This document shows, piece after piece, positions 6,127 through 51,802 of a DNA stretch of 64,000 nt (position 1 is its first letter; every line of letters begins with the position of its first letter). Under the pieces are notes generated by a model. It saw nothing but the letters and a program-made list of their open reading frames with translations, ran no database searches and had not been told where the DNA came from. A program made the translations under genes and the position numbers. The stretch is from Verrucomicrobia bacterium UBA2281 (GTDB lineage Bacteria; Verrucomicrobiota; Kiritimatiellia; CAIQIC01; Lenti-01): positions 861 through 64,860 of the forward strand of contig DDWR01000009.1 in the NCBI GenBank assembly GCA_002347655.1, read 5' to 3'.

Positions 6127-6147
6127 GTAAAACGGCGGCCGTTTTAC
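6127..6147 (-). terminator. Hairpin GTAAAACGG-N3-CCGTTTTAC just downstream of the channel gene stop (candidate operon terminator)
   Basis: 8-bp stem read from the sequence, followed on the minus strand by GGTTGATTTG. The U-tract is weak. The arms share the heptamer GTTTTAC/GTAAAAC with the 31-bp repeat family. Confidence 0.35.
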
Positions 6148-6153
6148 CTCGTT

Positions 6154-7767
6154 TTACCGGACGCCGCCGCCCACCAGCCGCCAGAAGCGCCGCAAGATGC
6201 CGTCGCGCGACAAAGCCTGTTCCCCCGGCGCCGCGCCGGCCGCCAAGGCGTCTTCGAGCTGCCGGCGGTTCTGCTGGACCCGTTCGGCCACCAGCTGGCT
6301 GACCTGCTCGACCAGCCCCGCGTGCTTGCCCAGCAGCTCCGCGAATTCCGGCGCGGGGATCTGCAGCAATTCCGCCGATTCCGCCGCCGCGATCTCCGCC
6401 GTGCGCGGCAGGCCCGTCATCAGGCTCATTTCGCCGACCACCGCGCCCGCGCCGACTTCGAACGTCGTCGTTTGGCCCGACTCCCGGTGCGCGATGCGGC
6501 CGGCCAACCGGCCCGCCAAAACGACGTAGCAGCAGTCGCCCGCATCGCCCTGCCGGAACACCGTTTCGCCCTGGCCGTAGAGCTGGCTCGCCAGCCGGCC
6601 CGCCCAGGCCGCCAGATCCGCCGCAGGCACCAGCGGCTGGCCGTCCGCGCCGGCCAAGACCTTCTTGGCGAAATCGCTCTGCAGCAGCCCGGCCGCGCGG
6701 CGCCGGGCTTCGGGCTCTGCCGCCGGCGCCGCCGCCGGCGGCACGGCGCGCTTCATGAAGTCGTTGAGCACCTGGTCCGTCACCGGATACGGGATGTCGA
6801 TGCCGGCGCGGCGGAACTGGTACCAGACATGCCGCCGCACTTCGGCCAGCGTCGGATCGCGGAACGGATAGTCGTCCACCCAGATGCGCAGTTCATAGCC
6901 GATGCCGTAGCTCTTGAAATCCAGCAGGAGCGCGGCCGGTTCCGGCGTCCGGCGCACCGCGGGCACCGCCGCGGCGGCCGCTTGCAGCGCGGCGAGCACG
7001 CGATCGGGCGGCGCGTCGTAGCTGGCATCCACCAATACCGAGCAGCGGCGCGGCTCCGCCGGCCGGCTCAGGTGCCGGATGCGGGCCTCCGCGACCTTGG
7101 CGTTGGGCACGCGCACGGGAATCTGGTCGCGCGTCGTCAGCCAGGTTTCCCGCCAGTTCATCTCGGTAACGCGGCCTTCGAGTTCGTCGATGGCCACCCA
7201 GTCGCCGGGTGCCAGCGAGCCGGTCAGGTTCAGCGACATGCCGGCCAGCAGGTTGCCCAGCACGCCTTGCAGCGCGAAGCCGACCACCGCCGTAACCAGC
7301 GCGGTGGAGGCCAGCAGCGGCGCAACGTTCCAGCCCAGTTCGAAACGCAGGGCGCAGAACGCGGCCAGCGCCGCCATGCCCAGCCGCAGCACGCCGCGCA
7401 GCAACGCCGGCAACGCCTGGCCCTTCCAGGCGAGGATCTGCCGAAAGGTTGCCTCGCCGAGGGCGTAGGCCAGCAACAGCAGCCAGAACAGGATCCACGC
7501 CCCGGCATGGGCGGCCGGGAACCGCTCCGCCCACGTCGCGCCGGCCCACGCCGGCAAGCGCAGCGCCAGCGCGCCCAGCCCCAGCGCCAGCAACGGGAAC
7601 GGCAGGCTTTCCAGCGCCGCCCACAGCCACTTCCCCGCCAGCCCCCTTGCGGCCTGCGCGCGGCGCGCCAGCGCCCGACGCGGCGCGGCCGCCAGGCCCA
7701 GCGCCGCCAGCGCCGCCAAGATCAAGGCCGCCGCTTCCGCGAACCGGAACCAAATCGCGCTATTCAT
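6154..7767 (-). CDS. MscS-family mechanosensitive channel with C-terminal cyclic-nucleotide-binding domain (bCNG-type)
   Basis: MscS core: GNLLAGMSLNLTGSLAPGDWVAIDELEGRVTEMNWRETWL. cNMP domain with phosphate-binding cassette: VGEMSLMTGLPRTAEIAA. Confidence 0.9.
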   Translation of the reverse strand: MNSAIWFRFAEAAALILAALAALGLAAAPRRALARRAQAARGLAGKWLWAALESLPFPLLALGLGALALRLPAWAGATWAERFPAAHAGAWILFWLLLLAYALGEATFRQILAWKGQALPALLRGVLRLGMAALAAFCALRFELGWNVAPLLASTALVTAVVGFALQGVLGNLLAGMSLNLTGSLAPGDWVAIDELEGRVTEMNWRETWLTTRDQIPVRVPNAKVAEARIRHLSRPAEPRRCSVLVDASYDAPPDRVLAALQAAAAAVPAVRRTPEPAALLLDFKSYGIGYELRIWVDDYPFRDPTLAEVRRHVWYQFRRAGIDIPYPVTDQVLNDFMKRAVPPAAAPAAEPEARRRAAGLLQSDFAKKVLAGADGQPLVPAADLAAWAGRLASQLYGQGETVFRQGDAGDCCYVVLAGRLAGRIAHRESGQTTTFEVGAGAVVGEMSLMTGLPRTAEIAAAESAELLQIPAPEFAELLGKHAGLVEQVSQLVAERVQQNRRQLEDALAAGAAPGEQALSRDGILRRFWRLVGGGVR

Positions 7768-8542
7768 GCAACGTCTCCGTCATGCGTTCGCCCGCCGGCA
7801 CCGTCGCGCCTTTGAACGCCGCGGCCGCGTCGGCGGCCAGCGCGTCGATCTCGGCATCGGTCCGGCCGGGCGCGTGGTGGATCAACCAAAGCTTCGCCGC
7901 GCCGCAGCGGCGCGCGGCCTCGGCGGCATCGGCCCAAGTGCTGTGGCCCCAGCCGCGGTGCGCCGCGTATTCGTCGGGCCGGAACTGCGCATCGAACGCC
8001 AGCAGGTCCGCGCCGCGCGCGAACGCGGCGAAGGCATCCTGCGCGCGCGGGGTCATCGCCGCCCATTCGACGTCCGTGGCCACCACCGCGCACGCGCCGG
8101 TCGCCGGCTCGTCGATGCGGTAGGCCAGGCAGCCGTCGGGATGCGCGAGCGCGTGCCAGCCGATCCGGAGGCCGCCGACGTCCAGCGGAGCCGTCGGCAC
8201 GGGATACTCCGCGGCCGGCAGCTTGACCGGCCAAACCGGCGGTGAAAACACCCGTTCCAGCGCCGGTCGCAAATCGCCGTGCGGAAACACCAGTTGCTTC
8301 GGCCATGCGTCCGCCAGCGCCGGCAATCCGATGAGATGGTCCAGATGGACGTGGGTGAAAAACAGCGTGCCGCCGGGTCGCAAGCGGTCCGTCAGGTTGC
8401 GGACGCCGCTGCCGGCGTCGATCAGCGCCTGCGCGCCGTCCCGGCTTTCCGCCAGCAGCGCGAACGTGTCGCCGCCGTAGCGGATTTTATCCGCGCCCGA
8501 GACGGGGAAACTGCCGCGCGCGCCGCCCAGGATGATTTTCAT
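7760..8542 (-). CDS. MBL-fold metallo-hydrolase; candidate class II-like cyclic-nucleotide phosphodiesterase
   Basis: THVHLDHLIGL (HxHxDH), N-terminal KIILGGARGS and LIDAGSG. 8-nt overlap with the channel gene start. Confidence 0.85.
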   Translation of the reverse strand: MKIILGGARGSFPVSGADKIRYGGDTFALLAESRDGAQALIDAGSGVRNLTDRLRPGGTLFFTHVHLDHLIGLPALADAWPKQLVFPHGDLRPALERVFSPPVWPVKLPAAEYPVPTAPLDVGGLRIGWHALAHPDGCLAYRIDEPATGACAVVATDVEWAAMTPRAQDAFAAFARGADLLAFDAQFRPDEYAAHRGWGHSTWADAAEAARRCGAAKLWLIHHAPGRTDAEIDALAADAAAAFKGATVPAGERMTETLHE

Positions 8543-8552
8543 GCCGCGGCCC

Positions 8553-10700
8553 TCATTTTTCCGTCAGGTTCCAGATGCCGTCCCAGGCCGCGCCCGGCCC
8601 GGCCGCGGCCAGCGCGCGGCATTTCGCCGCATAGGTTGTCGCCGCCGCATCGGCGCCCAGCTTATCGAACCCTGCCGCCGCGTCGCTCCAGCGGCCGGCC
8701 CGCGCCAGTTCCAGCGCGGCGGCGAACGCCGCCGCTTCCGGAGCCGGCGCTTCGCCTTCCAGCCCGATCGCCTCGAACACCCGCACCGGCGTCTTCCGCC
8801 CCACCACCGTCAATTGCCCCAGCTCGCGGCCCGGGAACGCGCCGTTCGTCAGCGCCCAGGTCGACTCGGCCACCATCATGTAGGTGCCCAGCGCCTTGTT
8901 CGCGCCCTCGAGCCGCGAGGCCAGGTTCGCCGCGTCGCCCAACACCGTGTAGTCGAAGCGGTTGCTCGAGCCCATGTTGCCGACGACGACCGCGCCGGTG
9001 TTCAGGCCGATGCGCATCTTGAGCGTCGCGCCCGTGCGCTGCTCGAATTCCGCGCGGCGTTCGGCCAGCTTGCGCTGGCAGCGGACCGACGCCCGCACCG
9101 CGCGCACCGCGTGGTCGGACTGGCGCAACGGCGCGTTCCAGAACGCGATGATCGCGTCGCCCTCGTACTTGTCCAGCGTGCCGCCTTCCTCGAGGATGAT
9201 GTCGGTCATGTCGGACAGGTAGTCGTTCAGCAGCTTCGTCAGGTCTTCCGGCCCCAGCTTTTCGGAGATGGTCGAAAAGCCCTGCAGGTCGGAGAAGAAA
9301 ATCGTGAGTTCGCGTTTTTCGCCGCCGAGCTTGAGGCTGCCGGGATCGCGCAGGATCTGCTCGATCACGTCGGCGCTCAGGTAATGCTTGAAGGCGCCCT
9401 TGAGGAACAATTTCTGGCGGCCTTCCAGCACGAAGTTCGCGATGGCCCCGCCCAGCAGCGCGAGCATGGCGCCGACCATGCCGCCCGCCGCGGGAAGCAC
9501 GTAGCCGGCCGGCCAGGCCGCGAAGCCCGCCAGGGCCGGCAGCGGAATCAGGACGACGGCCGCCAACGCGCTCTGCCAGCCGCTGCGCGCGGACGCCGCG
9601 GCGACGCCCGCCGCCAGCGCCAGCAACAAGATCCACGCCGCCACGAGCGGCCCCGGCACGTCGCGCAGGAAATCGCCGGCGAGCAGGTCGTCGAGCATCG
9701 TCGCGTGGATTTCCACGCCGGGATAGCCCGCGCCCATCGGCGACGTCACCGTGTCCTTCAGGCCTGGCGCGCTGAAACCGAAGAACACGTGGGCATCCTT
9801 GAAAACGCTTCCGTCCCGGATCGGCGGTTCGGCGCCTTCCAGCAGGCGCACTTCCGACTGGACGACGGCGGCCGCGCCGAACGCCTGATGCGTCCGCGAC
9901 GGGCCGCGGAACTTCAGGATCATGCGGCCGCGGTCGTCCAGCGGAATCCGGCGCCCGCCCACGGCCAGTTCGCCGGATCGGATCGAGATGTCGCCGCGCT
10001 CCGCGCCGAGACCCGCGAGCCAGGCCGCGAAGCCCAGCGTGGGCAGGACCTGGCCGTCGAAGATGCGGAACGGCGCGGCGCGGCGGTAGATGCCGTCGGC
10101 ATCGGCCGCGGCGCTCACGTTGCCGAGCCAAGCCGCCGCGCCCGCCACTTCGGGCACGGGAAACGCCGCCCGCGGCGCAACGAGATCCGCCGCCGCTTCC
10201 GGATGCGCCGCCAGCCATGCTTCCAGCCCCTGGATTTCGATGGGACTGGGCTTGGCATGCTCGGGCCACGTCGCGGTTTGCTCCGTCTGCCGACCGAGAA
10301 AAACCGCGCCGACGAAATTGCCGAAGCGCGCGATGGCGGCGCCGAGCGCTTCGTCGTCGGGCACCCCGTAGGCCGACGGTTCCGTGTAGAGCACGTCGAA
10401 CGCCGCCGTTTGGGCCTCGTTGCGTTTCAGGTAATCCAGCAACGGGCCGTAGACTTCCCGCGGCCACGGCCAGGAGAGCCCTTGTTCCCGGCTACCCCAA
10501 TCCAGGCTTTCCTGATCCAGCAGGACCAGCTTGACCCGGTCCGTCGCTGCGGACGGCCGCGCCAGCGTGCGCGCGCGCCAATCGGCCAGCGGCGCCTCCC
10601 AGCGCGCGACGAGTCCGGTGCGCTCCAGCGCGGCCACGCCCAGCGCCGCCAGCGCGCCGGCCAACAGGCCGCAAGCCGCTTTCTTGGGAAACCGGGCCAT
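8553..10700 (-). CDS. CHASE2 sensor-domain class III adenylate cyclase
   Basis: 715 aa. N-terminal CHASE2-like periplasmic region, then TM helices. Cyclase core: IFFSDLQGFST, DKYEGDAIIAFWNAP, RIGLNTGAVVVGNMG, GDAANLASRLEG. The Lys/Thr specificity pair favours ATP. Confidence 0.9.
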   Translation of the reverse strand: MARFPKKAACGLLAGALAALGVAALERTGLVARWEAPLADWRARTLARPSAATDRVKLVLLDQESLDWGSREQGLSWPWPREVYGPLLDYLKRNEAQTAAFDVLYTEPSAYGVPDDEALGAAIARFGNFVGAVFLGRQTEQTATWPEHAKPSPIEIQGLEAWLAAHPEAAADLVAPRAAFPVPEVAGAAAWLGNVSAAADADGIYRRAAPFRIFDGQVLPTLGFAAWLAGLGAERGDISIRSGELAVGGRRIPLDDRGRMILKFRGPSRTHQAFGAAAVVQSEVRLLEGAEPPIRDGSVFKDAHVFFGFSAPGLKDTVTSPMGAGYPGVEIHATMLDDLLAGDFLRDVPGPLVAAWILLLALAAGVAAASARSGWQSALAAVVLIPLPALAGFAAWPAGYVLPAAGGMVGAMLALLGGAIANFVLEGRQKLFLKGAFKHYLSADVIEQILRDPGSLKLGGEKRELTIFFSDLQGFSTISEKLGPEDLTKLLNDYLSDMTDIILEEGGTLDKYEGDAIIAFWNAPLRQSDHAVRAVRASVRCQRKLAERRAEFEQRTGATLKMRIGLNTGAVVVGNMGSSNRFDYTVLGDAANLASRLEGANKALGTYMMVAESTWALTNGAFPGRELGQLTVVGRKTPVRVFEAIGLEGEAPAPEAAAFAAALELARAGRWSDAAAGFDKLGADAAATTYAAKCRALAAAGPGAAWDGIWNLTEK

Positions 10701-10703
10701 CGC

Positions 10704-11621
10704 CTAGAGCGATTTCGTCGCGGCCAGAAAACGCTTCTGCCGGGCGTTGGCCGACGCCTTCGACGACGCCACGCCGCTCTTCCGGAGTTCCTTGATGCGG
10801 TCCGCCGGCGCCGGATGGGTCGCCGCGAAATCCTTGCGCGACGCATCCCAGTTCTTGGCCATGTTCTCCAGCATCGCGACCAGCGCGCCGGAATTGTAGC
10901 CGGCCTGCTTGAGGATCGCGACCGCCGCGGCGTCCGCCTCGTATTCCAGTTTCCGCGAATAGCCGCTGTTCATCAGCGTCCCGGAGATGTCATTGATGGA
11001 TTCGTCGAAGGCCTTGGTCACTTCGGCGAGCTGTTCACCCGCGAGGTTCTTGCCGGCCTCGACCGCCAGGATCGTCAGGGCGGACCCGAGCCGGCCCGTC
11101 TTGATGGCCCGCAGCCCGTGCACCTTTTCGACGTGGCCGATTTCGTGCGCGAGCACGGCGGCCAGTTCGTCCTCGGTTTCGCAGCACTTCAGCAGGCCGC
11201 GCGTCACCAGGATCAGCCCGCCCGGCGCCGCGAAGGCGTTGATGTCGTCGGAATCCAGCGCCAGGAAATGGTAGCCGCCGAAGGTTTCCGGCTTGGTCGA
11301 GAACTGCGCCAGCGCCTGGCCCAGGCGGTTCAGATAGCCGTTGAGGTCGTCCGCCGGGTACGCCTTGTACTGCGCCAGCACCGTCGCCGCCACCGTGCGG
11401 CCGACGTAGTATTCCTGCTCCGGCGTGATGTCCTGGAAGGTCTTCGTCACCGCCGTGCCCACGCGCTTGGTGCTTTCGGCCTGGTCCGGCGTGATGACGC
11501 CGCCGGCGGCCGCCACGTCGGCCGCGAGCGCCGTCGCCTGGTTGACCATTTCGCAGCCCGTCGTCGCCCACGCCAGCGCCAGCGCCGCGAACCCCGTCGT
11601 CAAAATCGAAATTTTGTTCAT
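10704..11621 (-). CDS. M48-family zinc metallopeptidase lipoprotein (BepA/YfgC-like protease domain)
   Basis: HEIGH motif in AAVLAHEIGHVEKVHG, downstream EYEADAAAV, and lipobox LAWATTGC. Confidence 0.9.
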   Translation of the reverse strand: MNKISILTTGFAALALAWATTGCEMVNQATALAADVAAAGGVITPDQAESTKRVGTAVTKTFQDITPEQEYYVGRTVAATVLAQYKAYPADDLNGYLNRLGQALAQFSTKPETFGGYHFLALDSDDINAFAAPGGLILVTRGLLKCCETEDELAAVLAHEIGHVEKVHGLRAIKTGRLGSALTILAVEAGKNLAGEQLAEVTKAFDESINDISGTLMNSGYSRKLEYEADAAAVAILKQAGYNSGALVAMLENMAKNWDASRKDFAATHPAPADRIKELRKSGVASSKASANARQKRFLAATKSL

Positions 11622-11631
11622 GTCGCGCTCC

Positions 11632-12093
11632 TCAGCGAACCAAGTCGCCCTGTTTCAGGAATTCGACCAGCTGCTCGCTCGGCACGGTTTGCCGGCCCAT
11701 CCAATCCACCCAGGTGAAATCCAGCTGGGGATTCTGCTTCTTGTATTCGGATTCGACTTCCTTGCTGAAGCCCTTGCCGGCCAGCGCGACTTCCTCGCTG
11801 CCGACGGACTGGACGCGCGCGTCCGCGCCGCCCGACGCCAGCACGACTTTTTTCGGCGTGAGCGCCGACTCGTGGATCCAGCCGGTTTTTCCGGCGATGG
11901 ACACCTCGCACCAGCCCGCCTGGGTCTGGTTGACGGTCACGCGGTCGCCGTAGGCCACCGTGCCGACCACCGTGCCCAGGAACGACCCGCGGTTGCGCAA
12001 CTGTCCGTCGCGCACCTGCACGCTCATTTCTTTCGCCGCCCATGCGGCGGTCGCCGCGAGCGCCATGCAGCCTGCCAGAATCCACGTTTTCAT
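11632..12093 (-). CDS. Secreted bacterial SH3 (SH3b) domain protein
   Basis: Signal peptide MKTWILAGCMALAATAAWA. SH3-like GTVAYGDRVTVNQTQAGWCEVSIAGKTGWIHESAL. GGAG SD. Confidence 0.7.
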   Translation of the reverse strand: MKTWILAGCMALAATAAWAAKEMSVQVRDGQLRNRGSFLGTVVGTVAYGDRVTVNQTQAGWCEVSIAGKTGWIHESALTPKKVVLASGGADARVQSVGSEEVALAGKGFSKEVESEYKKQNPQLDFTWVDWMGRQTVPSEQLVEFLKQGDLVR

Positions 12094-12107
12094 GCTTTGT
12101 CTCCGCG

Positions 12108-13052
12108 TTACTTGTTTTCCAGTCGCTGTGCGGCCTGGAAAGTTACAAAAAGTTCGCCCAATTTCTTCGCAACCGATTCGTCGTCAAGGCGTTCCGCGAC
12201 GACCACGCCCTCTTCCAGCGTGCGCAGGGCTTCCGGCCGGAGGCCTTGCGCCCACAAGCTGCGCGCGGACCGGTAGAACCGGTCGGCGGCCCCGGCGAGA
12301 TCGTCCGCCGCCTGCGCCTGGCGGCCGCCAGCGGCCAAGGCGCGGGCCATGTCCGGCAGGCGCCCCGCCTTTTTCCACAGCGCGGCGGCTTCGTCCTGCC
12401 GCGCCAAGGCATCCTTCGGCTTATTTTCCGCCGCGGCGATCGCAGCGCGCATTTCGGCTTGTTCCGCCTGCAGCGATTCCGGCAGGGCGGCCCACGCCTT
12501 CGCCGGCATTCCCGCCAGTGCCCGCGTGGCCGCCGCGGAATTTTCCTGTGCCAACTCCGCGCCGCTTTGCGCGAGCAAAGCCTGCGCCTGCAGCGCGGGC
12601 GCGGGCTTCAGCTCCAGCGCCGCGGCGACGCGCACCTGCGCCGCGGCGGGTTGGCCGCGCGCCTGTTCCGCGCGCGCGGCCGCCACAAGCAGTTCCGCGC
12701 GGCGCGCGGATTCGATCCGCGCGTCCGCCAGCGCTTCGTCGAGCCCCGCCAAGGCGTCCGCGGCCTGGCCGGCCGCCACCAGGGCCGTCGCGCGGTTCAC
12801 GGCGGAGATCGCCAAGGCGTCCGCGTCGTCCAGCGCGCGCGCGCGCTGCTGGGCCCGGCCGTAGGCATCCGCCGCGCGACGGTAATCCCCGCGCTCATAG
12901 GCGCCCCGGCCCGTCGTGACGTGCGACACCCAGTCCGCGTCCGTGAACCGCGGCGCCGGCGGCGTCGCGCACCCCGCCGCCAAGGCGACCGCCAAGGCCG
13001 CAACCCAGCTTCCCCTGAACCCTGAACCCTGACTCCTGACTCCTGTCCTCAT
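12108..13052 (-). CDS. TPR-like all-helical lipoprotein
   Basis: Start MRTGVRSQG overlaps the MlaD stop (ATGA). Lipobox LAAGC. Ala/Leu-rich helical repeats. The long ORF 12108-13907 is a composite, and only this part is supported. Confidence 0.65.
   Translation of the reverse strand: MRTGVRSQGSGFRGSWVAALAVALAAGCATPPAPRFTDADWVSHVTTGRGAYERGDYRRAADAYGRAQQRARALDDADALAISAVNRATALVAAGQAADALAGLDEALADARIESARRAELLVAAARAEQARGQPAAAQVRVAAALELKPAPALQAQALLAQSGAELAQENSAAATRALAGMPAKAWAALPESLQAEQAEMRAAIAAAENKPKDALARQDEAAALWKKAGRLPDMARALAAGGRQAQAADDLAGAADRFYRSARSLWAQGLRPEALRTLEEGVVVAERLDDESVAKKLGELFVTFQAAQRLENK
13014..13048. repeat. Five tandem heptamers CCTGAAC CCTGAAC CCTGACT CCTGACT CCTGTCC
   Basis: Read directly. 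They occupy codons 2-13 of the TPR lipoprotein gene, immediately after the ATGA junction with mlaD. Confidence 0.8.
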
Positions 13053-14017
13053 GGCACCAACACCTCCTCGGCGCGGGCCGCGGCGTCCGAGCCCATGTAT
13101 TTTTTCAGCAGCCAATGTTTCTGCAGGCCGTCCAGCAGCGTCGTCGTTTCGCGCATCAGCGCCTGCGCGTCGCCGACCACGGCGGGCAGGTTGTCGATTT
13201 CGCCGCCGACGGTGTCGGCCATCGGAGCCAGCTTCGCCACCGTCGCCTGCAGTTCCGTCGCCACGGCATTGATTTTCGCCACCAGCTGCTGCACGTCGGC
13301 GACGATCGCCTGCACGTTTTGGGCCAGGGCCGGATCGTTCAGGATCTGCGCGGGCAGGCCGGGACCCGTGCGGACGTCTTCCAGCAAGCCGTTCGCGTTC
13401 GCCAGCAGCAGCTGCAGGCTGCCGTCGGGATCGTTCAGCGAGCCGCCCAGCGCCATGTATTCGGCGATGGCGCCGTTCACCAGCGCCAGGGTGTTGATCG
13501 CCTCCTTGCGGATCGCTTCCAGCGCTTCCTGGAGCATCTGGACGATTTCGACGTCCTTCTTGATGACGATTTCGCCGCCCGGCGCGACGGGGCCACCCCG
13601 CACGGGCAGATCCGCGCCGGTTTCGTCCTTGTCGGCGCCCAGTTCGATGTAGGCATCGCCCGTCACCACCATTTTCTTCTTCACCCAGGCGACCATGTCG
13701 GTCTTCACGTGCCGCAAGAACGACCCGCGCACCCGGATGGTGCCGGAAATGGCGCCCGTTTCGTCGTCCACGAGCAGATCCTGCACGCTGCCGACCGGCG
13801 TGCCCAGCAGGATGACTTCGGCGCCTTTTTTCAGGCCCATGAAGCCTTCCCCATGGCCCTCTTCCTGCGGCAATTTCAGCTGGAGCACGGCGGAGCCTTC
13901 GAACCAATGCTGCGCACGGCCCGCCACCAGGACGCCCGCCAGCAGAAGCAGGACCACCAGCAGCACGAAACCGCCCACGATTTCGTTCACGTATCGGAAC
14001 TTGAATTTTTTCGCCAT
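13049..14017 (-). CDS. MlaD/MCE-family substrate-binding protein
   Basis: N-terminal TM (VGGFVLLVVLLLLAGVLVAG), MCE domain (GLKKGAEVILLGTPVGSVQDL) and a long helical C-terminus. Confidence 0.85.
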   Translation of the reverse strand: MAKKFKFRYVNEIVGGFVLLVVLLLLAGVLVAGRAQHWFEGSAVLQLKLPQEEGHGEGFMGLKKGAEVILLGTPVGSVQDLLVDDETGAISGTIRVRGSFLRHVKTDMVAWVKKKMVVTGDAYIELGADKDETGADLPVRGGPVAPGGEIVIKKDVEIVQMLQEALEAIRKEAINTLALVNGAIAEYMALGGSLNDPDGSLQLLLANANGLLEDVRTGPGLPAQILNDPALAQNVQAIVADVQQLVAKINAVATELQATVAKLAPMADTVGGEIDNLPAVVGDAQALMRETTTLLDGLQKHWLLKKYMGSDAAARAEEVLVP

Positions 14018-14027
14018 GGTTTGCTCC

Positions 14028-14675
14028 TCAATCCCGCGCGGGCGCCGCGACCGTCAGCGGCGCCAGTGCCGCGCGCGTCTCCGCATCCATATCCTCGTCC
14101 AGCCAGACGACTGCGCAACCGGCCGCCCGGACGAGGGCAACCGCGGCGCGCAGCCGCGCGGCGTCTTCCGCCGGCGCACCGCGCAGCGGCCGCTCCAGCA
14201 CCAGCGCTTCCGGCCGGCCCGCAAACGCGCGCGTCCAGGCGAGCTTGCGCCGGTCGCGCTCGCGCACCGCCGGCGCGCGTTCCGCCGGCAACGGCCAGAC
14301 GCCGAAAAACCGCGCCCATTCCTCGATCGCTGCCGCCGCGTCGGCCCGCCGGTGGATGCGCGCCGGCAGCCAGACGTTTTCGTCCATGTCCAGATTCGCC
14401 AGCAGGCCGCCGTCCGCGAAGACGCACCCGATGCAGCCCCGTTCCGCCGCGGCCGCCGCGGGATCGCGGTCCCGCCACTCGACGCCTTTCCAGAACACCT
14501 GCCCGTGCGGCGGCGGCTCGATGCCCGTCAGCCAGTCCAGCCACGACCGGCCGGAATCCGTTCCGTCGGGAATCCAGAGCGCCGCGCCCGGTGCCAGCGC
14601 GAAGCTCCACGCCGGCCCCGGCGCCGCCCCGCGCACCGCCGCCACCCGGATCAATTCGCTGGATTCGCCGTCCAT
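14028..14675 (-). CDS. MlaF-like ABC ATPase homolog with all catalytic motifs degenerate (pseudo-ATPase)
   Basis: Motif spacing is ABC-like. Walker A is DGTDSGRS, Q-loop FADGG, signature VRERD, Walker B ALVLERP, H-loop WLDED. Confidence 0.65.
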   Translation of the reverse strand: MDGESSELIRVAAVRGAAPGPAWSFALAPGAALWIPDGTDSGRSWLDWLTGIEPPPHGQVFWKGVEWRDRDPAAAAAERGCIGCVFADGGLLANLDMDENVWLPARIHRRADAAAAIEEWARFFGVWPLPAERAPAVRERDRRKLAWTRAFAGRPEALVLERPLRGAPAEDAARLRAAVALVRAAGCAVVWLDEDMDAETRAALAPLTVAAPARD

Positions 14676-14685
14676 TCCGCTTTTC

Positions 14686-15486
14686 CTAGAGATACGCCAT
14701 CAGGGACACCAGCAGCGACGTCACGAACAGCGCCGCCACCGACCGCATCACGCCGCGGGTCGCCGCGATGGGCACTTCCGTGACCGCCGCGCCCACGGCG
14801 AACGCTTCGTCGCAGCAGATCGCGCCCGTCAGCATGCCCGGCAGGATCGACTTCGCCAGCAGGCTGAAGACGTCCGCCACCGTCACCGCGCCGATGATGT
14901 TGCCGAAAAACAGGCCCATGTCGAGGTCGCCCAGGCGGATCACCCACAGGCACGCGAAGCCGCCGATGAAGGTCACCGCCAGAAAAATGATCGTCAGGCA
15001 GAAGGTCGAGGCCGCCACGCCGATCACGCGCGGCACCACCAGGTAGACGAACGGATCGATGCCCATCGCGTCCAGCGCGCGCACTTCCCCGTGGACCTTC
15101 ATGTTGGCCAGTTCCGTCGAGATGGCCGTGCCGCTGCGCGCGATCACCACGAAATTCGTCAAGAGCGGCCCCAGTTCGCGCAGCACGACGGCGGTCAGGA
15201 TGGGGCCGATGAGCGCCGTCTGGCCCAGGCGCGTCAGCCAGTACTGCGCCTGCACGACGACCAACGTGCCCACGATCAGCGCGATGAGCGCGACGAAGTT
15301 CGTCGCTTCCAGCCCCGTGAAAAGGATCTGGCGCGCCAGCACGTTGCGCAGCGGCGGGGTCCAGAGCGCCGGCCGCAGCGCCTGCGTCCCCGCCGCCCAG
15401 ACCAGCGCGGCCGTCCGCGCCGCCCGGCCCAACCGGGCCAGCGTCGCCGCGCCAATGGCACCCAACACGTTCATCTTGCGCGGCAT
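14686..15486 (-). CDS. MlaE-family ABC transporter permease
   Basis: RELGPLLTNFVVIARSGTAISTELANMKVHGEVRALDAMGIDPFVYLVVPRV is the MlaE signature region. Start is MPRKMNVL (15486) or MNVL (15474). Confidence 0.85.
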   Translation of the reverse strand: MPRKMNVLGAIGAATLARLGRAARTAALVWAAGTQALRPALWTPPLRNVLARQILFTGLEATNFVALIALIVGTLVVVQAQYWLTRLGQTALIGPILTAVVLRELGPLLTNFVVIARSGTAISTELANMKVHGEVRALDAMGIDPFVYLVVPRVIGVAASTFCLTIIFLAVTFIGGFACLWVIRLGDLDMGLFFGNIIGAVTVADVFSLLAKSILPGMLTGAICCDEAFAVGAAVTEVPIAATRGVMRSVAALFVTSLLVSLMAYL

Positions 15487-15530
15487 TATAGAGACCCCCG
15501 CCCGCCCCGCACAACACAATCTGCGCCGAC

Positions 15531-15559
15531 TTGCCCTGCACCCCGAACGCGGCTATCTT
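15531..15559 (+). promoter_or_regulatory. Candidate sigma-70 promoter TTGCCC-N17-TATCTT ending 8 nt before the mutY ATG (leaderless geometry)
   Basis: Hexamers and spacing read from the sequence. No SD before ATG 15568. Confidence 0.35.
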
Positions 15560-15567
15560 GTTTTTTC

Positions 15568-16701
15568 ATGTCTTCGTCCAAAATCCAGCCTTTGCGCTCC
15601 GCGGTGCGGCGGAGGCTGCTGCCGTGGTTCGCGCGGAACGCGCGCGACCTGCCGTGGCGCGCGGAGCCGCGCCGGCCGTATGCCGTCTGGATTTCGGAAA
15701 TCATGCTCCAGCAGACCCGGGTGGACACCGTCGTGCCCTATTTCCAGCGGTTCCTGACCCGGTTCCCCGGTCCGGCCGCCCTCGCCGCCGCCCCCCTCCA
15801 GGACGTCCTGAAGCTCTGGGAGGGCCTCGGCTACTACTCCCGCGCCCGCCAGATCCACAAAACGGCGAAACTCCTCGCCCGCGACCATGGCGGCGAACTC
15901 CCGGCCGATCCCGCCGCCCTCGCCGCCCTGCCCGGCCTCGGCCCCTATACCGTCGCCGCCGTCGCCTCGTTCGCGTTCGGGCACCCCCTCGCCGTTCTCG
16001 ACGGCAACGTCATCCGCGTGTTTTCCCGCTTGCTGGCCTTGCCCGACGACGTCGGTTTGCCCGCCACGAAGAAAAAGCTCCAGCGCCTCGCCGACGAGTT
16101 GCTCCTGCGGGACAAACCCGCCGCGACCAACGAAGCCTGGATGGAACTCGGCGCGCTGGTCTGCACGCCGCGCCAGCCCTGTTGTCCCGATTGTCCGTTG
16201 CGCGGCGTCTGCCGCGCCGCCAAGCTCAAGACTCCCGAAGCGTACCCGAACAAGAAGAAGAAAATGAAAGTGCCCCACAAAATCGTCGGCGCCGCCGTCA
16301 TCCTCAACGCGAAAAACCAGATCCTGATCGCCCAGCGCAATCCCGAAAAAGGCATGCTCGCTGGCCTGTGGGAATTCCCCGGCGGCAAGATCGCCGAGGG
16401 CGAAACGATGCCGGCGTGCATCGCCCGCGAACTGAAGGAAGAAATGGGCATCGCGATCGACGTCGGCCCGCATCTCGTCACCGTGCACCACGCTTACAGC
16501 CATTTCACCATCGAGCTCCACGCTCATTTCGCGCGCATCCGCGCCGGCCGCCCGCGCCATCTGGAGTGCTCCGGCCACGCCTGGACCACGCGCGACAAGT
16601 TCGCCGACTTCCCCTTCTCCAAAGCCGACTTGGAAATCATCCGCGCCCTGCGCGCCTTGCCGGAGCCGCCCCGGCTGCGCGACGTTTTTCCGGAAATCTA
16701 A
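15568..16701 (+). CDS. mutY: A/G-specific adenine DNA glycosylase with a MutT-like C-terminal Nudix domain
   Basis: HhH-GPD (LPGLGPYTVAAVASFAF), Fe-S loop CTPRQPCCPDCPLRGVC, and a C-terminal domain with a complete Nudix box GKIAEGETMPACIARELKEEMGI. Confidence 0.9.
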   Translation: MSSSKIQPLRSAVRRRLLPWFARNARDLPWRAEPRRPYAVWISEIMLQQTRVDTVVPYFQRFLTRFPGPAALAAAPLQDVLKLWEGLGYYSRARQIHKTAKLLARDHGGELPADPAALAALPGLGPYTVAAVASFAFGHPLAVLDGNVIRVFSRLLALPDDVGLPATKKKLQRLADELLLRDKPAATNEAWMELGALVCTPRQPCCPDCPLRGVCRAAKLKTPEAYPNKKKKMKVPHKIVGAAVILNAKNQILIAQRNPEKGMLAGLWEFPGGKIAEGETMPACIARELKEEMGIAIDVGPHLVTVHHAYSHFTIELHAHFARIRAGRPRHLECSGHAWTTRDKFADFPFSKADLEIIRALRALPEPPRLRDVFPEI

Positions 16702-32332: not shown

Positions 32333-33316
32333 TCAAAACGCCCCGAAGAAAATGCTGGTGAAGGTGGTGACCGGCGAGGTTTCCCGCATGTCGTCCACCG
32401 TCGCGCGGCCTTCGCGCAGCAGCGCCTGGAACTCGCGATAGACCCCTTCGTCGGCCAGCAGCTTGCCCAGCGTGCCTTCGCCGCGGCCGACGGATTCCGC
32501 AAGCGTCCGCACTTGCGCGACGGTGGCGGCCAGATCCCGGTAGACCTGGTCGTCCTCGCTCAGCAACCGGCCCATCGTGCCTTCGCCCTTGGCCAGGCGG
32601 CCGCTGATATCGCCCAAATTCGCGGCGACCTGCTGCAACTGCCCGTAGACCTCGTCGTCCATCACGAGCTTGCCGATGGTGCCCTCGCCCTTCGCGATCG
32701 CGTCGCTGATCGTGCGGACGTTCGCGGCGATCTGCTGGACGTCGCCGTAGAGCTGGTCGTCGTTCAGGAGGCGGCTGAGGGTGCCGTTGCCTTCGCCGAG
32801 GCTTTCGGTGATCTTGCGGATCTGCGCCATGGCGGCCTTCAGGTCCGCCAGCACGCCGTCGTTGAGCGCGGCCTGGATGTCCTGGACGGTCTTCGTGGCC
32901 GTGTCCATCAGTTCCGCCGAAGCGCTGCCCCGCAGGGGCGCGTCCAGGGAGAGCCGCGGGGCGGCGGGATCGCCGAGGTCCACGCTCAGGTAGCGGCCGC
33001 CGAGCACGGAACCCGTCGCCACTTCGATCCGGTAGCCTTCGCGCAGTTCCACGGGCACGTCCAGGCGCGCCTGCACGTGGACGCCGTCCGGCTCCAGCCA
33101 AAGGCCCTTCACCTTGCCGATGACCACCCCGCGCGCGTTCACCTCGTCGCCCACGCGCAACCCGCTCACCGATTCGAACACGACGTCGAGATACGTGTAC
33201 TTCCGGAACAGCATTTCCTCGCTGAGATACGTCGTCAGCGCGAAGAGCACCGCGATGATCGCAAAAGCGAAAATCCCGACCGTCGCTTCGATGGCCACTT
33301 GCTTCTTGAACTTCAT
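32333..33316 (-). CDS. mlaD: MlaD/MCE-family protein with four ~35-aa helical repeats
   Basis: MKFKKQVAIEATVGIFAFAIIAV, MCE domain GLRVGDEVNARGVVIGKV, and repeats ending GEG(T/N)xG(K/R)L. ATGA overlap with mlaF. Confidence 0.85.
   Translation of the reverse strand: MKFKKQVAIEATVGIFAFAIIAVLFALTTYLSEEMLFRKYTYLDVVFESVSGLRVGDEVNARGVVIGKVKGLWLEPDGVHVQARLDVPVELREGYRIEVATGSVLGGRYLSVDLGDPAAPRLSLDAPLRGSASAELMDTATKTVQDIQAALNDGVLADLKAAMAQIRKITESLGEGNGTLSRLLNDDQLYGDVQQIAANVRTISDAIAKGEGTIGKLVMDDEVYGQLQQVAANLGDISGRLAKGEGTMGRLLSEDDQVYRDLAATVAQVRTLAESVGRGEGTLGKLLADEGVYREFQALLREGRATVDDMRETSPVTTFTSIFFGAF
32417..32869 (-). repeat. Intragenic tandem repeats (4 x about 105 bp) encoding LLxDDxxYxxxxxxAxxxxxxxxxxxxGEGTxGK
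   Basis: GEG motifs at residues 174, 210, 244 and 279 of the MlaD protein. The repetition is also visible at DNA level. Confidence 0.6.
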
Positions 33317-34077
33317 TTTTCGAACGCCTTTCGGACGTCTTCCAGGCCGGCGATGCCCTGGGCCCGCAAGAAGTCTCTCACGACCGGATGTTCCGATGCA
33401 ACGAATTCCGCCGGCGGCGCGCAGACCACGAACCGGCCTTCGTGGAGCATCGCCACGCGCGAGCCGATGCCCAGCGCGCTGTAGAGATCGTGCGTCACCA
33501 CCACGCTGGTCACGCCCAGGCGCCGCCGCAGGTCGTCGATCAGCAGGTCGATCTGGCGCGAAATCAGCGGATCCAACCCGGAGGTCGGTTCGTCGTAGAG
33601 GATGATTTCCGGCTGGGTGGCGATGGCCCGCGCCAGCCCCACGCGCTTGCGCATGCCGCCGGAGATGTCGGCGGGCAACTTGTCGCCGGCCCCCTCCAGC
33701 CCGACCAGCGCGAGCTTCTCGGCCGCGATCCGGCGGATTTCCGCATCGGGCCGGTTCGTCGTCTGCCGCAGCGGCAGGCAGACGTTGTCCTCCACGTTCA
33801 GCCACTGGAGCAGCGCCGAGCCCTGGAAGAGCACCCCGAAGCGCCGCAGGATTTTTTCCAGCCGGGCGCCGTCCGCCTCGCTGACGCAGTCGTCGCCCAC
33901 CCACACCCGGCCGGCTTCCGGCGTCAGCAGCCGGATCATGTGCCGGAGGCTCACGCTCTTGCCCGCGCCCGAGAGCCCCACGATCACGAAGGTTTCGCCC
34001 TGTTCGATCTCGTAGCTGGCGTCGTCCAGCACCGTCTTGCGCCCGAAGCGCTTGGTCACGTGTTCGAAGCGGATCAT
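33313..34077 (-). CDS. mlaF: ABC transporter ATP-binding protein (MlaF-like, motifs intact)
   Basis: Walker A GLSGAGKS, Q-loop LFQGSAL, signature ISGGMRKRVGLARA, Walker B IILYDEP, H-loop VVTHD. Confidence 0.9.
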   Translation of the reverse strand: MIRFEHVTKRFGRKTVLDDASYEIEQGETFVIVGLSGAGKSVSLRHMIRLLTPEAGRVWVGDDCVSEADGARLEKILRRFGVLFQGSALLQWLNVEDNVCLPLRQTTNRPDAEIRRIAAEKLALVGLEGAGDKLPADISGGMRKRVGLARAIATQPEIILYDEPTSGLDPLISRQIDLLIDDLRRRLGVTSVVVTHDLYSALGIGSRVAMLHEGRFVVCAPPAEFVASEHPVVRDFLRAQGIAGLEDVRKAFEK

Positions 34078-34886
34078 TTGTAGAACAGCCTCGTCACGAA
34101 GTAGCCCAGCGTCAGGATCAGCAGGAACGACACGATCACCGTGCGGCGCGTCGCGCGACCCACGCCGACCGCGCCTTCGCGCGTCGTGAAGCCCTGGTAG
34201 CACGCCACGCAGGTCACGATCAGCCCGAAAATGAACGCCTTGAGCAGCCCCACCCACAGGTCCTTGTTGTGCGTGTAGCGGAAGGCGATGTCGTAGTAGG
34301 CCTCATAGGACACCCCCAGCATCGTCGCGCCCACCACCGACCCGCCGAACAGCCCGATCAGATCCATATAGGCCGTCAGCATCGGCGTCATCACCGCCAA
34401 CGCCACCAGGCGCGGCATCATCAGGTAGCGCCGCGGATCGATCCCCATCACGTCCAGCGCGGCGATTTCCTCGGACACCGTCATCGTGCCCAGCTGCGCG
34501 GCGATGGCCGAGCCCACGCTGGCCGCGATCACCAGCCCCGTCATGAACGGCCCCATTTCGCGCAGCATGGCGTTGCACACCAGCGTGCCGATCTGGCCTT
34601 CCTGGCTGAAGATCCGCAGCGCCAGCCCGAGCTGCAGCGCCAGGATCATCCCCGTGAACAGCCCCACCACCGACACCACGCCCAGGCTCTTGATCCCCAC
34701 GACGTAGCACTGCTGCATCACGTCGGTCCGGTTTTTCCGGGAGAACGCGTACGGCACCTGCAGGATCGCCCCGCCCAGCAGCAGCAGCGCGCGGCCGCTG
34801 CCCTGGCACGCCAGGATCACGCGCCGCCCGAGCGCGACGAGCGCGTTCGGCGGCGGTTCGAAATACTGTTGTTCGCGCGTGATCAT
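34074..34886 (-). CDS. mlaE: MlaE-family ABC permease
   Basis: LREMGPFMTGLVIAASVGSAIAAQLGTMTVSEEIAALDVMGIDPRRYLMMPRL. ATGA overlaps on both sides. Confidence 0.9.
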   Translation of the reverse strand: MITREQQYFEPPPNALVALGRRVILACQGSGRALLLLGGAILQVPYAFSRKNRTDVMQQCYVVGIKSLGVVSVVGLFTGMILALQLGLALRIFSQEGQIGTLVCNAMLREMGPFMTGLVIAASVGSAIAAQLGTMTVSEEIAALDVMGIDPRRYLMMPRLVALAVMTPMLTAYMDLIGLFGGSVVGATMLGVSYEAYYDIAFRYTHNKDLWVGLLKAFIFGLIVTCVACYQGFTTREGAVGVGRATRRTVIVSFLLILTLGYFVTRLFYK

Positions 34887-51702: not shown

Positions 51703-51732
51703 TCCCAAAGCTCCCGCCACCGAAACCTTCGG

Positions 51733-51792: not shown

Positions 51793-51802
51793 AACGAGAG
51801 CA

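Follow-up and report, generated by a model that had tools for sequence, protein, structure and literature searches.

Nine consecutive genes (g1 to g9) in the genome of an uncultured Kiritimatiellia bacterium, a MAG, probably constitute one operon that encodes a signalling pathway leading from the periplasm to cAMP (Table 1). The operon was found in a window of 64,000 nucleotides, the whole stretch of DNA that was analysed. In the proposed pathway the secreted SH3b protein g5 and the M48 lipoprotein g6 would bind or process either a ligand that derives from the envelope and is most likely peptide or protein in nature, or the periplasmic domain of the receptor itself, and their action would set the activity of the g7 cyclase. 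The resulting cAMP would be read by the g9 channel, with altered ion or solute flux as the outcome, and would be removed by g8. The ATPase-dead MCE complex of g1 to g3, which is encoded upstream together with the TPR lipoprotein g4, may give this pathway a sensory or structural input. Most likely it would be a fixed scaffold across the envelope, a conduit through which lipids pass passively, or a sensor. We infer the direction of information flow as well as any role of the Mla-like complex. A function in sensing envelope integrity or osmotic conditions, proposed in an earlier note made from the sequence alone, is plausible. That note also held that no described system joins such components, and a full-text literature search for an equivalent system found none.

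Gene layout and operon anatomy

The nine open reading frames occupy positions 6154-15486 on the minus strand and have a GC3 of 0.85-0.93, the high third-position GC that is typical of real genes. Their close packing and order, as first described from the sequence, were confirmed by the ORF coordinates: the successive spacings from g1 to g9 are 10, 10, -4, 14, 10, 3, 10 and -8 nt, which corresponds to gaps of 3-14 nt and overlaps of 4-8 nt. The Shine-Dalgarno sequences had all been placed inside the preceding stop regions. This is true of g3, g6 and g8, where a GGAG-type sequence runs across the preceding stop codon, but at g4, g5 and g9 it is located shortly 5' of the start codon, and at g2 and g7 it is weak. 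The domain calls stood up to Pfam annotation, the TPR call becoming visible through orthologs.

Table 1. Features of the operon and its borders (window coordinates)
Feature	Position	Strand	Description
g1, MlaE-type permease	14686-15486	-	266 aa, ~5 TM helices, Pfam MlaE 1.1e-47
g2, pseudo-NBD, ABC ATPase fold	14028-14675	-	assigned by profile and AF2/Foldseek; every catalytic motif missing
g3, MlaD/MCE protein	13049-14017	-	322 aa, Pfam MlaD 7e-8
g4, TPR lipoprotein	12108-13052	-	314 aa, start overlaps g3 stop (ATGA)
g5, secreted SH3b protein	11632-12093	-	153 aa, Pfam SH3_3 8.7e-9
g6, M48 zinc metalloprotease lipoprotein	10704-11621	-	305 aa, Pfam Peptidase_M48 2.3e-35
g7, CHASE2 receptor, putative adenylate cyclase	8553-10700	-	715 aa, Pfam CHASE2 5e-45 and Guanylate_cyc 4e-20
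g8, putative cytoplasmic MBL-fold phosphodiesterase, YhfI/Rv1339 'atypical class-II PDE' type	7760-8542	-	260 aa, Lactamase_B_2 1e-15
g9, bCNG-type channel	6154-7767	-	537 aa, five TM segments, Pfam
Hairpin with T-rich tail, likely operon terminator	6127-6147	-	9-bp stem, 3-nt loop, 6 nt past g9 stop
Divergent intergenic region, presumed promoter region	15487-15567		81 nt, between operon and mutY-like gene
mutY-like gene, divergent	15568-16701	+	starts 81 nt upstream of operon

The hairpin downstream of g9 is the sole convincing terminator. No internal terminator stands out, since the 12 terminator-like sites that were counted compare with 10.5 +/- 3.5 in shuffled sequences. In the divergent intergenic region no sigma-70-like site was found by a scan that did not include the promoter types of the host phylum. 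The layout is consistent with co-transcription of g1 to g9 as a single operon.

The receptor core and the predicted cAMP circuit

The g5 protein has a conserved C-terminal region of ~70 residues with the motif ALAGKGF, and its family comprises 815 clusters (50% identity, E<=1e-10), nearly all of ~160 aa and matched from end to end. In its neighbour g6 the HEIGH motif, Glu226, THP and the lipobox Cys23 are invariant among 82 sequences. An M48 domain carrying HExxH, a Glu ligand and the histidine of THP is common to g6 and BepA, LoiP and YcaL of E. coli, the lipoprotein signal is as in LoiP and YcaL, and the closest PDB matches are 3c37 and the protease domain of BepA. However, g6 lacks the TPR domain that is fused to the protease in BepA, it scores far under both family cut-offs (103 vs 570 bits for BepA, 70 vs 365 bits for LoiP) and, unlike the E. 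coli proteins, its family is always partnered by a dedicated SH3b protein and usually also by a CHASE2 cyclase. Thus, of the earlier description of g6 as a BepA-like protease of outer-membrane quality-control type, the BepA/LoiP-type protease domain stands, whereas the functional label, because the BepA TPR domain is absent, can be read as an analogy and not as membership.

The g7 protein is composed of TM1, the periplasmic CHASE2 domain, three more TMs and a class III cyclase domain, in which D471, D515, K511, T585, N592 and R596 are invariant or almost so among 63 sequences. The Lys and Thr residues are typical of adenylate cyclases, and cAMP is the predicted product. The fusion of a CHASE2 periplasmic sensor to a class III cyclase is also found in CyaD1, CyaD2 and CyaK of Sinorhizobium meliloti, which work with NsrA and Clr; these cyclases respond to a proteinaceous signal, and an accessory envelope protein is needed to perceive it (PMC13001267). 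The accessory proteins differ, as the S. meliloti NsrA is a beta-barrel outer-membrane protein while here an SH3b protein and an M48 lipoprotein are encoded, and so does the co-encoded effector, a channel in place of the CRP-type regulator Clr.

In g8 the THxHxDH motif and the remaining metal ligands are invariant across homologs, and the AF2 model (pLDDT 93) has YhfI (6kns) as its best Foldseek match, yet the two sequences are only ~21% identical. The PF12706 MBL fold and the [T/S]HxHxDH motif are common to g8, Rv1339 (M. tuberculosis), CpdA (C. glutamicum) and YhfI (B. subtilis). This motif defines the atypical class-II cAMP phosphodiesterases, and YhfI prefers cAMP/cGMP (PMC9293780, PMC9117128). 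The motif together with the YhfI-like model suggests cAMP as the substrate of g8; in contrast to these enzymes, g8 is matched as well or better by RNase Z-type models, and it reaches 35 bits against a cut-off of 400 with the NCBIfam 'cyclic nucleotide-degrading phosphodiesterase' model.

The g9 channel contains the MscS beta and C-terminal domains followed by a cNMP-binding domain (Pfam cNMP_binding 8e-18), as is the case in bCNG channels (bacterial cyclic-nucleotide-gated MscS-like channels), and 38 sequences agree in the phosphate-binding cassette, GEMSLxTGxPR[TM]A. Gating by cAMP is the predicted mode of action. Published bCNG channels mostly failed to protect E. coli from osmotic downshock, their response to cyclic nucleotides is unsettled and, according to a 2026 review, their physiological role is not known (PMC13591265). 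The described members (Caldwell 2010, Malcolm 2012, as cited in PMC13591265) are mostly cyanobacterial. What distinguishes g9 from them is that it is co-encoded with its presumptive cyclase, phosphodiesterase and periplasmic input proteins. The complete cNMP circuit recognised in the earlier reading is therefore well supported by homology: the invariant metal, Lys/Thr, Asn and Arg positions of the cyclase, the MBL motif with the YhfI-like model and the intact channel cassette.

An Mla-like module with a motif-dead NBD

A canonical MlaEFD system with intact ATPase motifs is encoded at 32.3-34.9 kb of the same window, thus g1 to g3 are a specialised second Mla paralog; g1 and the canonical MlaE (34074-34886) share 33% identity. 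As in MlaFEDB of E. coli and A. baumannii and in other MCE systems, an MlaE-type permease, a cytoplasmic NBD-fold partner and an MCE protein anchored in the inner membrane are encoded in the order E-F-D. The g2 protein alone stays below the Pfam ABC_tran threshold (17 bits, cut-off 25), but the profile of its orthologs matches LolD, FtsE and MlaF at 1e-23 to 3e-22, and the AF2 model (pLDDT 87.5) matches ABC NBDs in Foldseek with TM 0.7-0.82. Walker A, the Q-loop, LSGGQ, the catalytic Glu and the H-loop are missing from every ortholog displayed, even at only 23% identity to the window protein, and the earlier call of a motif-dead MlaF-like protein was borne out. Judged by these motifs, the g1-g3 complex cannot hydrolyse ATP and therefore would not be an ATP-driven lipid pump. 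No ATPase-dead Mla system was found described in a full-text literature search.

In the g3 protein an N-terminal TM anchor (residues 13-31) precedes the MCE domain, which is followed by a long extension at the C-terminus, and the orthologs keep the N-terminus MAKxFKFRYVNEI. Unlike in MlaFEDB, there is no gene for MlaB (STAS), MlaC or MlaA in the operon; instead, translation of the TPR lipoprotein g4 is coupled to that of MlaD. The lipobox Cys of g4 is invariant; the TPR domain, unseen in the window protein alone, was detected in 14 of 16 orthologs (TPR_12), and the g4 profile matches TPR proteins in PDB.

Conservation, modularity and alternative readings

With the M48 profile, 80 species-level loci were retrieved; a relative is encoded in 574 species genomes. 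SH3-M48 adjacency is seen in 80/80 loci and the cyclase comes next in 47 of the 50 with sufficient flank, numbers that are biased since M48 was the selection criterion. Families were also sampled independently (n=5 for SH3, n=3 for pseudo-NBD, n=3 for MBL). All five SH3 representatives sampled independently of M48, from distant loci, lie in SH3-M48-CHASE2 triads, from at least two phyla and often with overlapping genes; one triad, with overlapping genes, comes from a Desulfobulbaceae MAG outside the PVC group. Such linkage would be difficult to account for if the three genes had no function in common.

Beyond this core the block is modular, and Mla/TPR, MBL and channel are variable add-ons. 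Of the 35 loci having both flanks, 18 contain all nine genes (in 3 of the 18 the TPR gene was recognised only as a positionally equivalent ORF), 6 lack the channel alone and 10 lack the Mla part, so the nine genes are not an indivisible unit. The cyclase-MBL pair holds together even at loci from which SH3, M48 and Mla are wholly absent. Linkage of the MscS-cNMP gene to the core takes four forms (after MBL, directly after the cyclase, divergent upstream or same-strand upstream), and at other loci its place is taken by a membrane protein of the cNMP_binding-DUF1003 type, by a plain MscS or by CorA with an Ion_trans channel; ion channels are repeatedly found beside the core. In the close clade the entire neighbourhood, mutY and glgC included, is syntenic, and the locus was inherited vertically in many species (M48 identity 66-98%). 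The gene families diverge in parallel, with correlations of r = 0.88-0.97 between their pairwise distances, as is expected of any neighbours inherited vertically.

In some lineages the modules are found apart, so a single machine built from all nine products is not required. It is conceivable, if rather unlikely, that three functionally separate sub-operons share one transcript with no information flow between them: a variant Mla/TPR set for lipid homeostasis, SH3/M48 for periplasmic protein quality control and a cyclase/PDE/channel cAMP circuit. Such independence would agree with the core lacking Mla, with the cyclase-MBL pair occurring without SH3/M48 (L083, L084) and with SH3-M48 lacking a cyclase in L062, L074 and L082. 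Five loci have SH3-M48 without a detected neighbouring cyclase. Linkage in the close clade, where the mutY/glgC neighbourhood is also syntenic, may be simple descent. However, the independently sampled triads argue against it, and the full block, dead Mla set and TPR lipoprotein included, persists in distant clades (M48 54-61%, pseudo-NBD 27-39% identical to the window) from which all of the window's flanking genes are gone. Moreover, a canonical Mla system is already present in the genome, and the pseudo-NBD family, wherever sampled, occurs only in this operon type: two of three independently sampled homologs lie within it and for the third the contig breaks off behind the MlaD gene and an ORF of 293 aa.

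A protease dedicated to one client would account just as well for the strict adjacency of the core genes. Assembly intermediates of envelope proteins are the targets of M48 relatives, among them BepA, the closest named family to g6, and g5 and g6 might be dedicated biogenesis or turnover factors of the CHASE2 receptor, and possibly of the MCE complex, that carry out maturation or degradation outside signal perception while the receptor senses something else directly. This is improbable, as such strict co-variation with a single receptor family would not be anticipated for a chaperone or protease with a purely housekeeping role. Least probable by far is a Pycsar-like anti-phage system, in which a cyclase would make a cyclic nucleotide upon infection and the cell would then be killed or arrested by a membrane effector that binds cNMP. 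In PADLOC, Pycsar cyclase models match the g7 cyclase domain (2.8e-34) and Pycsar effector models the g9 cNMP-binding domain (7e-13), the phage anti-Pycsar protein Apyc1 is one of the MBL enzymes to which g8 is related, and one MBL homolog gives a faint Apyc1 Pfam match. Yet the g7 and g9 matches are homology at domain level only, the other seven proteins match no PADLOC defence model, g7 is a receptor in the membrane that has its sensor in the periplasm and adenylate-cyclase-type Lys/Thr, vertical inheritance in a stable housekeeping neighbourhood does not fit, and a built-in phosphodiesterase would oppose an abortive-infection signal. The favoured reading is still that of one periplasm-to-cAMP pathway, in which a lipid-transporter look-alike without an ATP motor would be combined with a cAMP receptor circuit, an association that is conserved in many species.

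Organisation of the nine-gene operon

Nine minus-strand open reading frames (ORFs) fill positions 6154-15486 of the window, numbered g1 to g9 in the order of transcription, with a third-position GC of 0.85-0.93 in a window of ~70% G+C. The eight junctions from g1 to g9 measure 10, 10, -4, 14, 10, 3, 10 and -8 nt, and the GGAG-type ribosome-binding sites of g3, g6 and g8 overlap the stop codon of the gene before. A hairpin (9-bp stem, T-rich tail) lies 6 nt past the g9 stop; besides it, no terminator-like site above the shuffle background was found. Consensus scans for internal terminators and promoters, which are uncalibrated for this phylum and a weak test there, remained at background level only, and the Rfam scan returned zero structured RNAs within or beside the operon. 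A mutY-like adenine glycosylase gene diverges from the operon, and since only 81 nt separate the two start codons, the promoters of both must overlap; glgC is located downstream. From this anatomy it is likely that the nine genes are co-transcribed.

Coordinates of the operon genes (g1-g9, in transcription order) and of other genes of the window
Feature	Position	Strand	Basis
g1, MlaE-type permease	14686-15486	-	
g2, MlaF-like protein	14028-14675	-	
g3, MlaD/MCE protein	13049-14017	-	
g4, lipoprotein	12108-13052	-	
g5, SH3b protein	11632-12093	-	
g6, M48 protease	10704-11621	-	
g7, CHASE2 cyclase	8553-10700	-	
g8, MBL-fold protein	7760-8542	-	
g9, MscS channel with cNMP-binding domain	6154-7767	-	
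mutY-like adenine glycosylase gene	15568-16701	+	translation; HhH-GPD and NUDIX ortholog in related locus L001
canonical MlaE	34074-34886	-	
canonical MlaF	33313-34077	-	
canonical MlaD	32333-33316	-	

The coordinates and description of the nine genes put forward in the earlier note (ORFs, junctions, terminal hairpin and divergent mutY-like gene) proved correct. Its domain calls were backed by Pfam as well: MlaE, MlaD, SH3_3, Peptidase_M48, CHASE2 with Guanylate_cyc, Lactamase_B_2, and MscS domains with cNMP_binding all score above the curated cut-offs, the MlaF-like g2 falls under that of ABC_tran, and the TPR assignment of g4 holds at the family level. The host is an uncultured organism, and every functional assignment is based on homology and on neighbouring genes.

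Elsewhere in the window, a fluoride riboswitch (51729-51797, minus strand; Rfam RF01734, 40.7 bits against a cut-off of 34) is located upstream of a 565-aa multi-pass membrane protein (49801-51498, minus strand), the N-terminus of which suggests a possible transporter of the cation/proton antiporter type.

Predicted properties of the encoded proteins

The centre of the operon encodes a secreted SH3b protein (g5), an M48 lipoprotein (g6) and a CHASE2 adenylate cyclase (g7), termed here the triad. Among 1.84 billion cluster representatives, searched exhaustively, 815 clusters belong to the SH3 family (E<=1e-10); almost all of the top 150 are proteins of ~160 residues that align over their full length. 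The C-terminal half of g5 (residues ~95-150) is as well conserved as the SH3 domain itself and contains a near-invariant ALAGKGF motif without family assignment. The protease, with a domain of the BepA/LoiP type, matches PF01435 at 2.3e-35, and H159, E160, H163 and E226, which supply the HExxH motif and the downstream Glu zinc ligand of the M48 fold, are invariant in 82 sequences. It is distinct from BepA: this 305-aa protein scores 103 bits against the BepA equivalog cut-off of 570, aligns to profile positions 25-264 of 483, i.e., to the protease domain only, and is devoid of the C-terminal TPR domain of BepA, while the TPR lipoprotein of the operon is the product of a separate gene, g4.

The cyclase matches PF05226 (CHASE2, 4.5e-45) and PF00211 (cyclase, 3.8e-20), and its hydrophobicity profile places transmembrane (TM) segments at residues 8-26, 344-362, 377-395 and 402-420, so that 1+3 segments surround a ~320-residue periplasmic CHASE2 domain, followed by the cyclase homology domain. 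The metal-binding D471 and D515, the substrate lysine K511 with its partner T585, and the transition-state residues N592 and R596 are conserved in 62-63 of 63 sequences. In class IIIb cyclases a Lys/Thr pair denotes ATP as the substrate, and g7 is accordingly predicted to use ATP.

The MBL-fold protein g8 has no TM segment in the hydrophobicity profile and keeps every metal ligand, its T63-H-x-H-x-D-H motif being invariant in 48 sequences (Ser in one). The motif [T/S]HxHxDH within PF12706 is the signature of the 'atypical class-II' cAMP phosphodiesterases, which include Rv1339, C. glutamicum CpdA and B. subtilis YhfI (PMC9293780), the last with a preference for cAMP/cGMP (PMC9117128); g8 carries this motif in the PF12706 MBL fold. 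Its structural model (pLDDT 93) has YhfI as the best Foldseek match (3.6e-15, TM 0.72-0.75), followed by RNase Z/ElaC and PhnP phosphodiesterases. Sequence models are less specific: g8 reaches 35 bits against a cut-off of 400 for the NCBIfam cNMP phosphodiesterase NF041851 and more with RNase Z models; all of these scores are under their cut-offs, the RNase Z matches covering the C-terminal half only. An identity as RNase Z or beta-lactamase was rejected, given that those matches are partial and below cut-off, that the best whole-structure match is YhfI and that the gene tracks the cyclase and not tRNA genes. The indirect support, which includes the position right after the CHASE2 cyclase gene in 36 of 50 loci and in two further loci of otherwise different content, makes g8 a putative cAMP hydrolase.

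The channel g9 contains five TM segments (hydrophobicity profile) and the domains PF00924, PF21082 and PF00027, in that order, which is the arrangement of bCNG channels. The cNMP-binding cassette GEMSLxTGxPR[T/M]A is conserved, with the phosphate-binding Gly-Glu...Arg-Thr/Met-Ala. Both the physiological role of bCNG channels and the part that cyclic nucleotides play in their gating are not understood (2026 review, PMC13591265). It was proposed in the earlier note that these genes constitute a complete cNMP circuit; the conserved residues of cyclase, MBL protein and binding cassette support such a putative circuit well by homology.

The Mla set (g1-g3) begins with a permease of five TM segments (hydrophobicity profile) that matches PF02405 at 1.1e-47 over 211 of 212 profile positions and scores 112 bits against NCBIfam MlaE cut-offs of 212 bits, hence it is a divergent member of the MlaE family. 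The MlaD protein g3 matches PF02470 at 7e-8 (33 bits, cut-off 25) and has a single N-terminal TM anchor by the same profile, in which g2 shows no TM segment. The family profile of g2, built from 16 orthologs, retrieves from the PDB LolD and FtsE at 1e-23 and A. baumannii MlaF at 3e-22, and the AlphaFold model (pLDDT 87.5) superposes on YbbA, LolD, FtsE, MacB and MlaF at TM 0.7-0.82; the predicted fold is that of an NBD. Yet residue-by-residue alignment showed that the Walker A lysine loop, Q-loop Gln, LSGGQ, the catalytic Glu after Walker B and the H-loop His are all absent from the window protein and the aligned orthologs, down to 23% identity. Because the family keeps invariant residues of its own (NLDxDEN, R133, R149-A150 and E161), among which NLDxDEN sits where real NBDs contact the permease, g2 represents a conserved pseudo-enzyme and no decaying gene. 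A pseudogene or sequencing artefact was ruled out by end-to-end conservation in orthologs down to 23% identity and by the confident NBD model. The family has only 187 detectable members in a collection of 5.8 billion proteins, labelled 'hypothetical protein' or unnamed at NCBI and generic ABC-ATPase at JGI, most of them without a Pfam domain.

The operon shares with MlaFEDB the MlaE-family permease and the membrane-anchored MCE protein (g1 and g3), whereas the ATP-hydrolysing NBD of MlaFEDB has all five motifs and g2 has none; MlaB (STAS), periplasmic MlaC and the outer-membrane lipoprotein MlaA were not found among the genes of the operon. Judged by these motifs, g1-g3 cannot be an ATP-driven pump. 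Neither is it the only Mla system of the cell, which is ruled out by the canonical set at 32.3-34.9 kb of the window; MlaF of that set has all five motifs, among them GLSGAGKS (Walker A), ISGGMRKR (signature), ILYDEP (Walker B) and VTHD (H-loop). Since a canonical MlaE/MlaF/MlaD operon is present in the same window, g1-g3 is a second, specialised paralog. The window g4 protein alone has no significant Pfam match; it is at the family level a TPR lipoprotein, since 14 of 16 orthologs match TPR_12, the family profile matches TPR proteins in the PDB and the lipobox Cys is invariant.

Linkage of the modules across related loci

One genome per species was scanned with the M48 profile, which revealed relatives in 574 species; the analysis covered the best 80 loci. 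The closest relatives, which are MAGs, carry the submitter labels Kiritimatiellia, Verrucomicrobia or Lentisphaerae. Among these best 80 of 574, the SH3 and M48 genes are adjacent in 80/80, the M48 gene is followed, where the flank suffices, by the cyclase in 47/50, the MBL gene in 36/50 and the channel in 30/50, and the MlaE, pseudo-NBD (g2-type) and MlaD genes precede in 33-34 of the 48 loci with enough flank. All nine genes were detected by tblastn in 15 of the 35 loci with both flanks, and in three more the TPR position is occupied by a right-sized ORF too diverged for tblastn. As to conservation of the nine-gene order, for which the earlier note had proposed a neighbourhood search, the block occurs in 18/35 both-flank loci, three of them by the TPR-position ORF; the channel alone is missing in six, and six contain the triad alone. 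Genes downstream in cyclase-only loci (QueF, HflX, PAP2, glycosidase, methyltransferase) are mutually unrelated and were dropped.

Where M48 is at least 66% identical (the close clade), the mutY, glgC and glycosyltransferase flanks are syntenic as well, so that conservation of the block there could be simple descent. The distant clade, with identities to the window of 54-64% for M48, 27-39% for the pseudo-NBD and 22-34% for the TPR protein, retains zero flanking genes, and the block persists in the same order with the same tight or overlapping junctions. The pairwise divergences of eight gene families co-vary (r = 0.88-0.97), which indicates inheritance as a block and not repeated assembly. 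Within the 80 loci the MscS-cNMP gene occupies four positions, i.e., after the MBL gene, directly after the cyclase, divergent upstream and upstream on the same strand. That the linkage persists through such rearrangements supports well a functional connection of the triad with an ion channel, whether cNMP-responsive or of another type.

Three loci (L031:6273-9365, L036:6119-9349 and L038:6248-9310) have a gene for a ~1020-1076 aa protein inserted between the TPR and SH3 genes; the L031 copy, the only one scanned, has a spermine/spermidine-synthase domain. In two loci without the dead-ATPase Mla set (L065:13649-16262 and L067 ~8846, both minus), weak matches to MlaE and MlaD (23-24% identity) occur immediately downstream of the cyclase gene, on the other strand; three consecutive ORFs of L065 (344, 253 and 280 aa) resemble a separate Mla-type set, and coincidence is possible.

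Since the 80 loci were picked through M48, the other modules were also sampled through other genes, in small samples of three pseudo-NBD, three MBL and five SH3 loci. Two of three pseudo-NBD homologs (29-41% identical) lie within this operon type, and the contig of the third ends past the MlaD gene and a 293-aa ORF. One of these operons, in a Kiritimatiellae genome, is without an MscS-cNMP channel; a convergent gene (L086:17122-17931, minus) adjoins its MBL gene and encodes a cNMP_binding-DUF1003 membrane protein, which is a possible alternative cAMP effector. MBL homologs 50-53% identical directly follow CHASE2 cyclase orthologs in two loci without SH3, M48 and Mla genes, and a third, 47% identical, is unlinked. 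One cyclase-MBL pair of that kind has upstream a 385-aa lipoprotein (L083:5302-6459, plus) with no Pfam match and two D-T-[SG] motifs that resemble those of a two-lobed aspartic protease; by these motifs, it may be another kind of protease partner in the periplasm. An M48 gene and a CHASE2 gene follow in 5/5 SH3-family contigs inspected. In a MAG labelled Desulfobulbaceae by its submitter (L089:10001-13580) the triad genes overlap and the next genes are unrelated; ion channels recur beside other distant triads, as a plain MscS without cNMP domain (L090:8001-12453) or, after an MBL gene, as CorA and an Ion_trans channel (L091:1877-8002).

The separability of the modules favours a reading in which the block is three independent sub-operons under one promoter; against this, the triad is constant across phyla and the block survives without flanking synteny. 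A Pycsar-like anti-phage defence system was also considered, as the PADLOC cyclase and effector models match the cyclase and cNMP-binding domains. Pycsar pairs a cytosolic pyrimidine cyclase with a toxic effector that is activated by cNMP, and its defence context is variable, whereas the cyclase here is a periplasm-sensing membrane receptor with Lys/Thr residues, the locus carries its own phosphodiesterase and its context is stable and housekeeping; the PADLOC matches are at the domain level only, and this possibility was rejected. The SH3/M48 pair may alternatively serve the biogenesis or turnover of the receptor and act outside perception; the observations fit this reading and a role in perception alike.

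Proposed mechanism and its implications

All nine proteins come from known superfamilies, and what is new is the combination and one component. The kind of system is receptor-cyclase second-messenger signalling, and its invariant unit is the secreted SH3b protein with the M48 lipoprotein and the CHASE2 adenylate cyclase. It is proposed that SH3b and M48 act on the periplasmic side of the receptor, where they may bind or cut a peptide or protein that derives from the envelope, or else process CHASE2 itself, and thereby set cAMP synthesis; cAMP would then act on the channel g9, and the phosphodiesterase g8 would reset the signal. MscS, CorA and Ion_trans genes turn up repeatedly next to the triad, which suggests that the output is ion or osmotic homeostasis. 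The TPR lipoprotein g4 is translationally coupled to the dead Mla set, and the two would most likely provide a static trans-envelope structure, a passive lipid path or a sensor, any of which may or may not communicate with the cyclase. In the literature covered, perception is described only for the CHASE2 cyclases of S. meliloti, which also respond to a protein signal perceived through an accessory envelope protein, there a plant protein and an outer-membrane protein (PMC13001267).

A more daring and rather unlikely reading is that of an Mla transporter turned sensor, in which the dead MlaE-pseudoNBD-MlaD complex with the TPR lipoprotein would span the periplasm and report the outer-membrane lipid state or envelope spacing to SH3 and M48, and through them to CHASE2, with cAMP gating the MscS-type channel. 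If true, it would constitute an envelope-stress pathway of a class not known before, and it would for the first time explain how CHASE2 receptors are activated and assign a physiological role to bCNG channels.

The statement of the earlier note that no such system has been described agrees with full-text literature searches, in which nothing relevant to such combinations was found: neither a CHASE2 cyclase that has SH3 and M48 proteins as dedicated partners, nor a bCNG channel whose gene lies with those of its cyclase and phosphodiesterase, nor an Mla-type system with a conserved dead NBD. A conserved yet catalytically dead NBD is unusual among MCE systems and bears on the debate over MCE complexes working with and without ATP. 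The system is common in Kiritimatiellia-type PVC bacteria, which come from digesters, sediments and guts and have hardly been studied by experiment. CHASE2 activation is poorly understood, and the dedicated SH3b and M48 proteins, encoded next to the receptor in hundreds of lineages that span at least two phyla, offer a testable hypothesis, in which perception is linked to proteolysis or peptide binding. Here the bCNG channel comes in one operon with the probable cyclase, phosphodiesterase and input proteins for it. How are CHASE2 receptors activated, and what is the role of bCNG channels? Both open questions are made directly testable by this operon.
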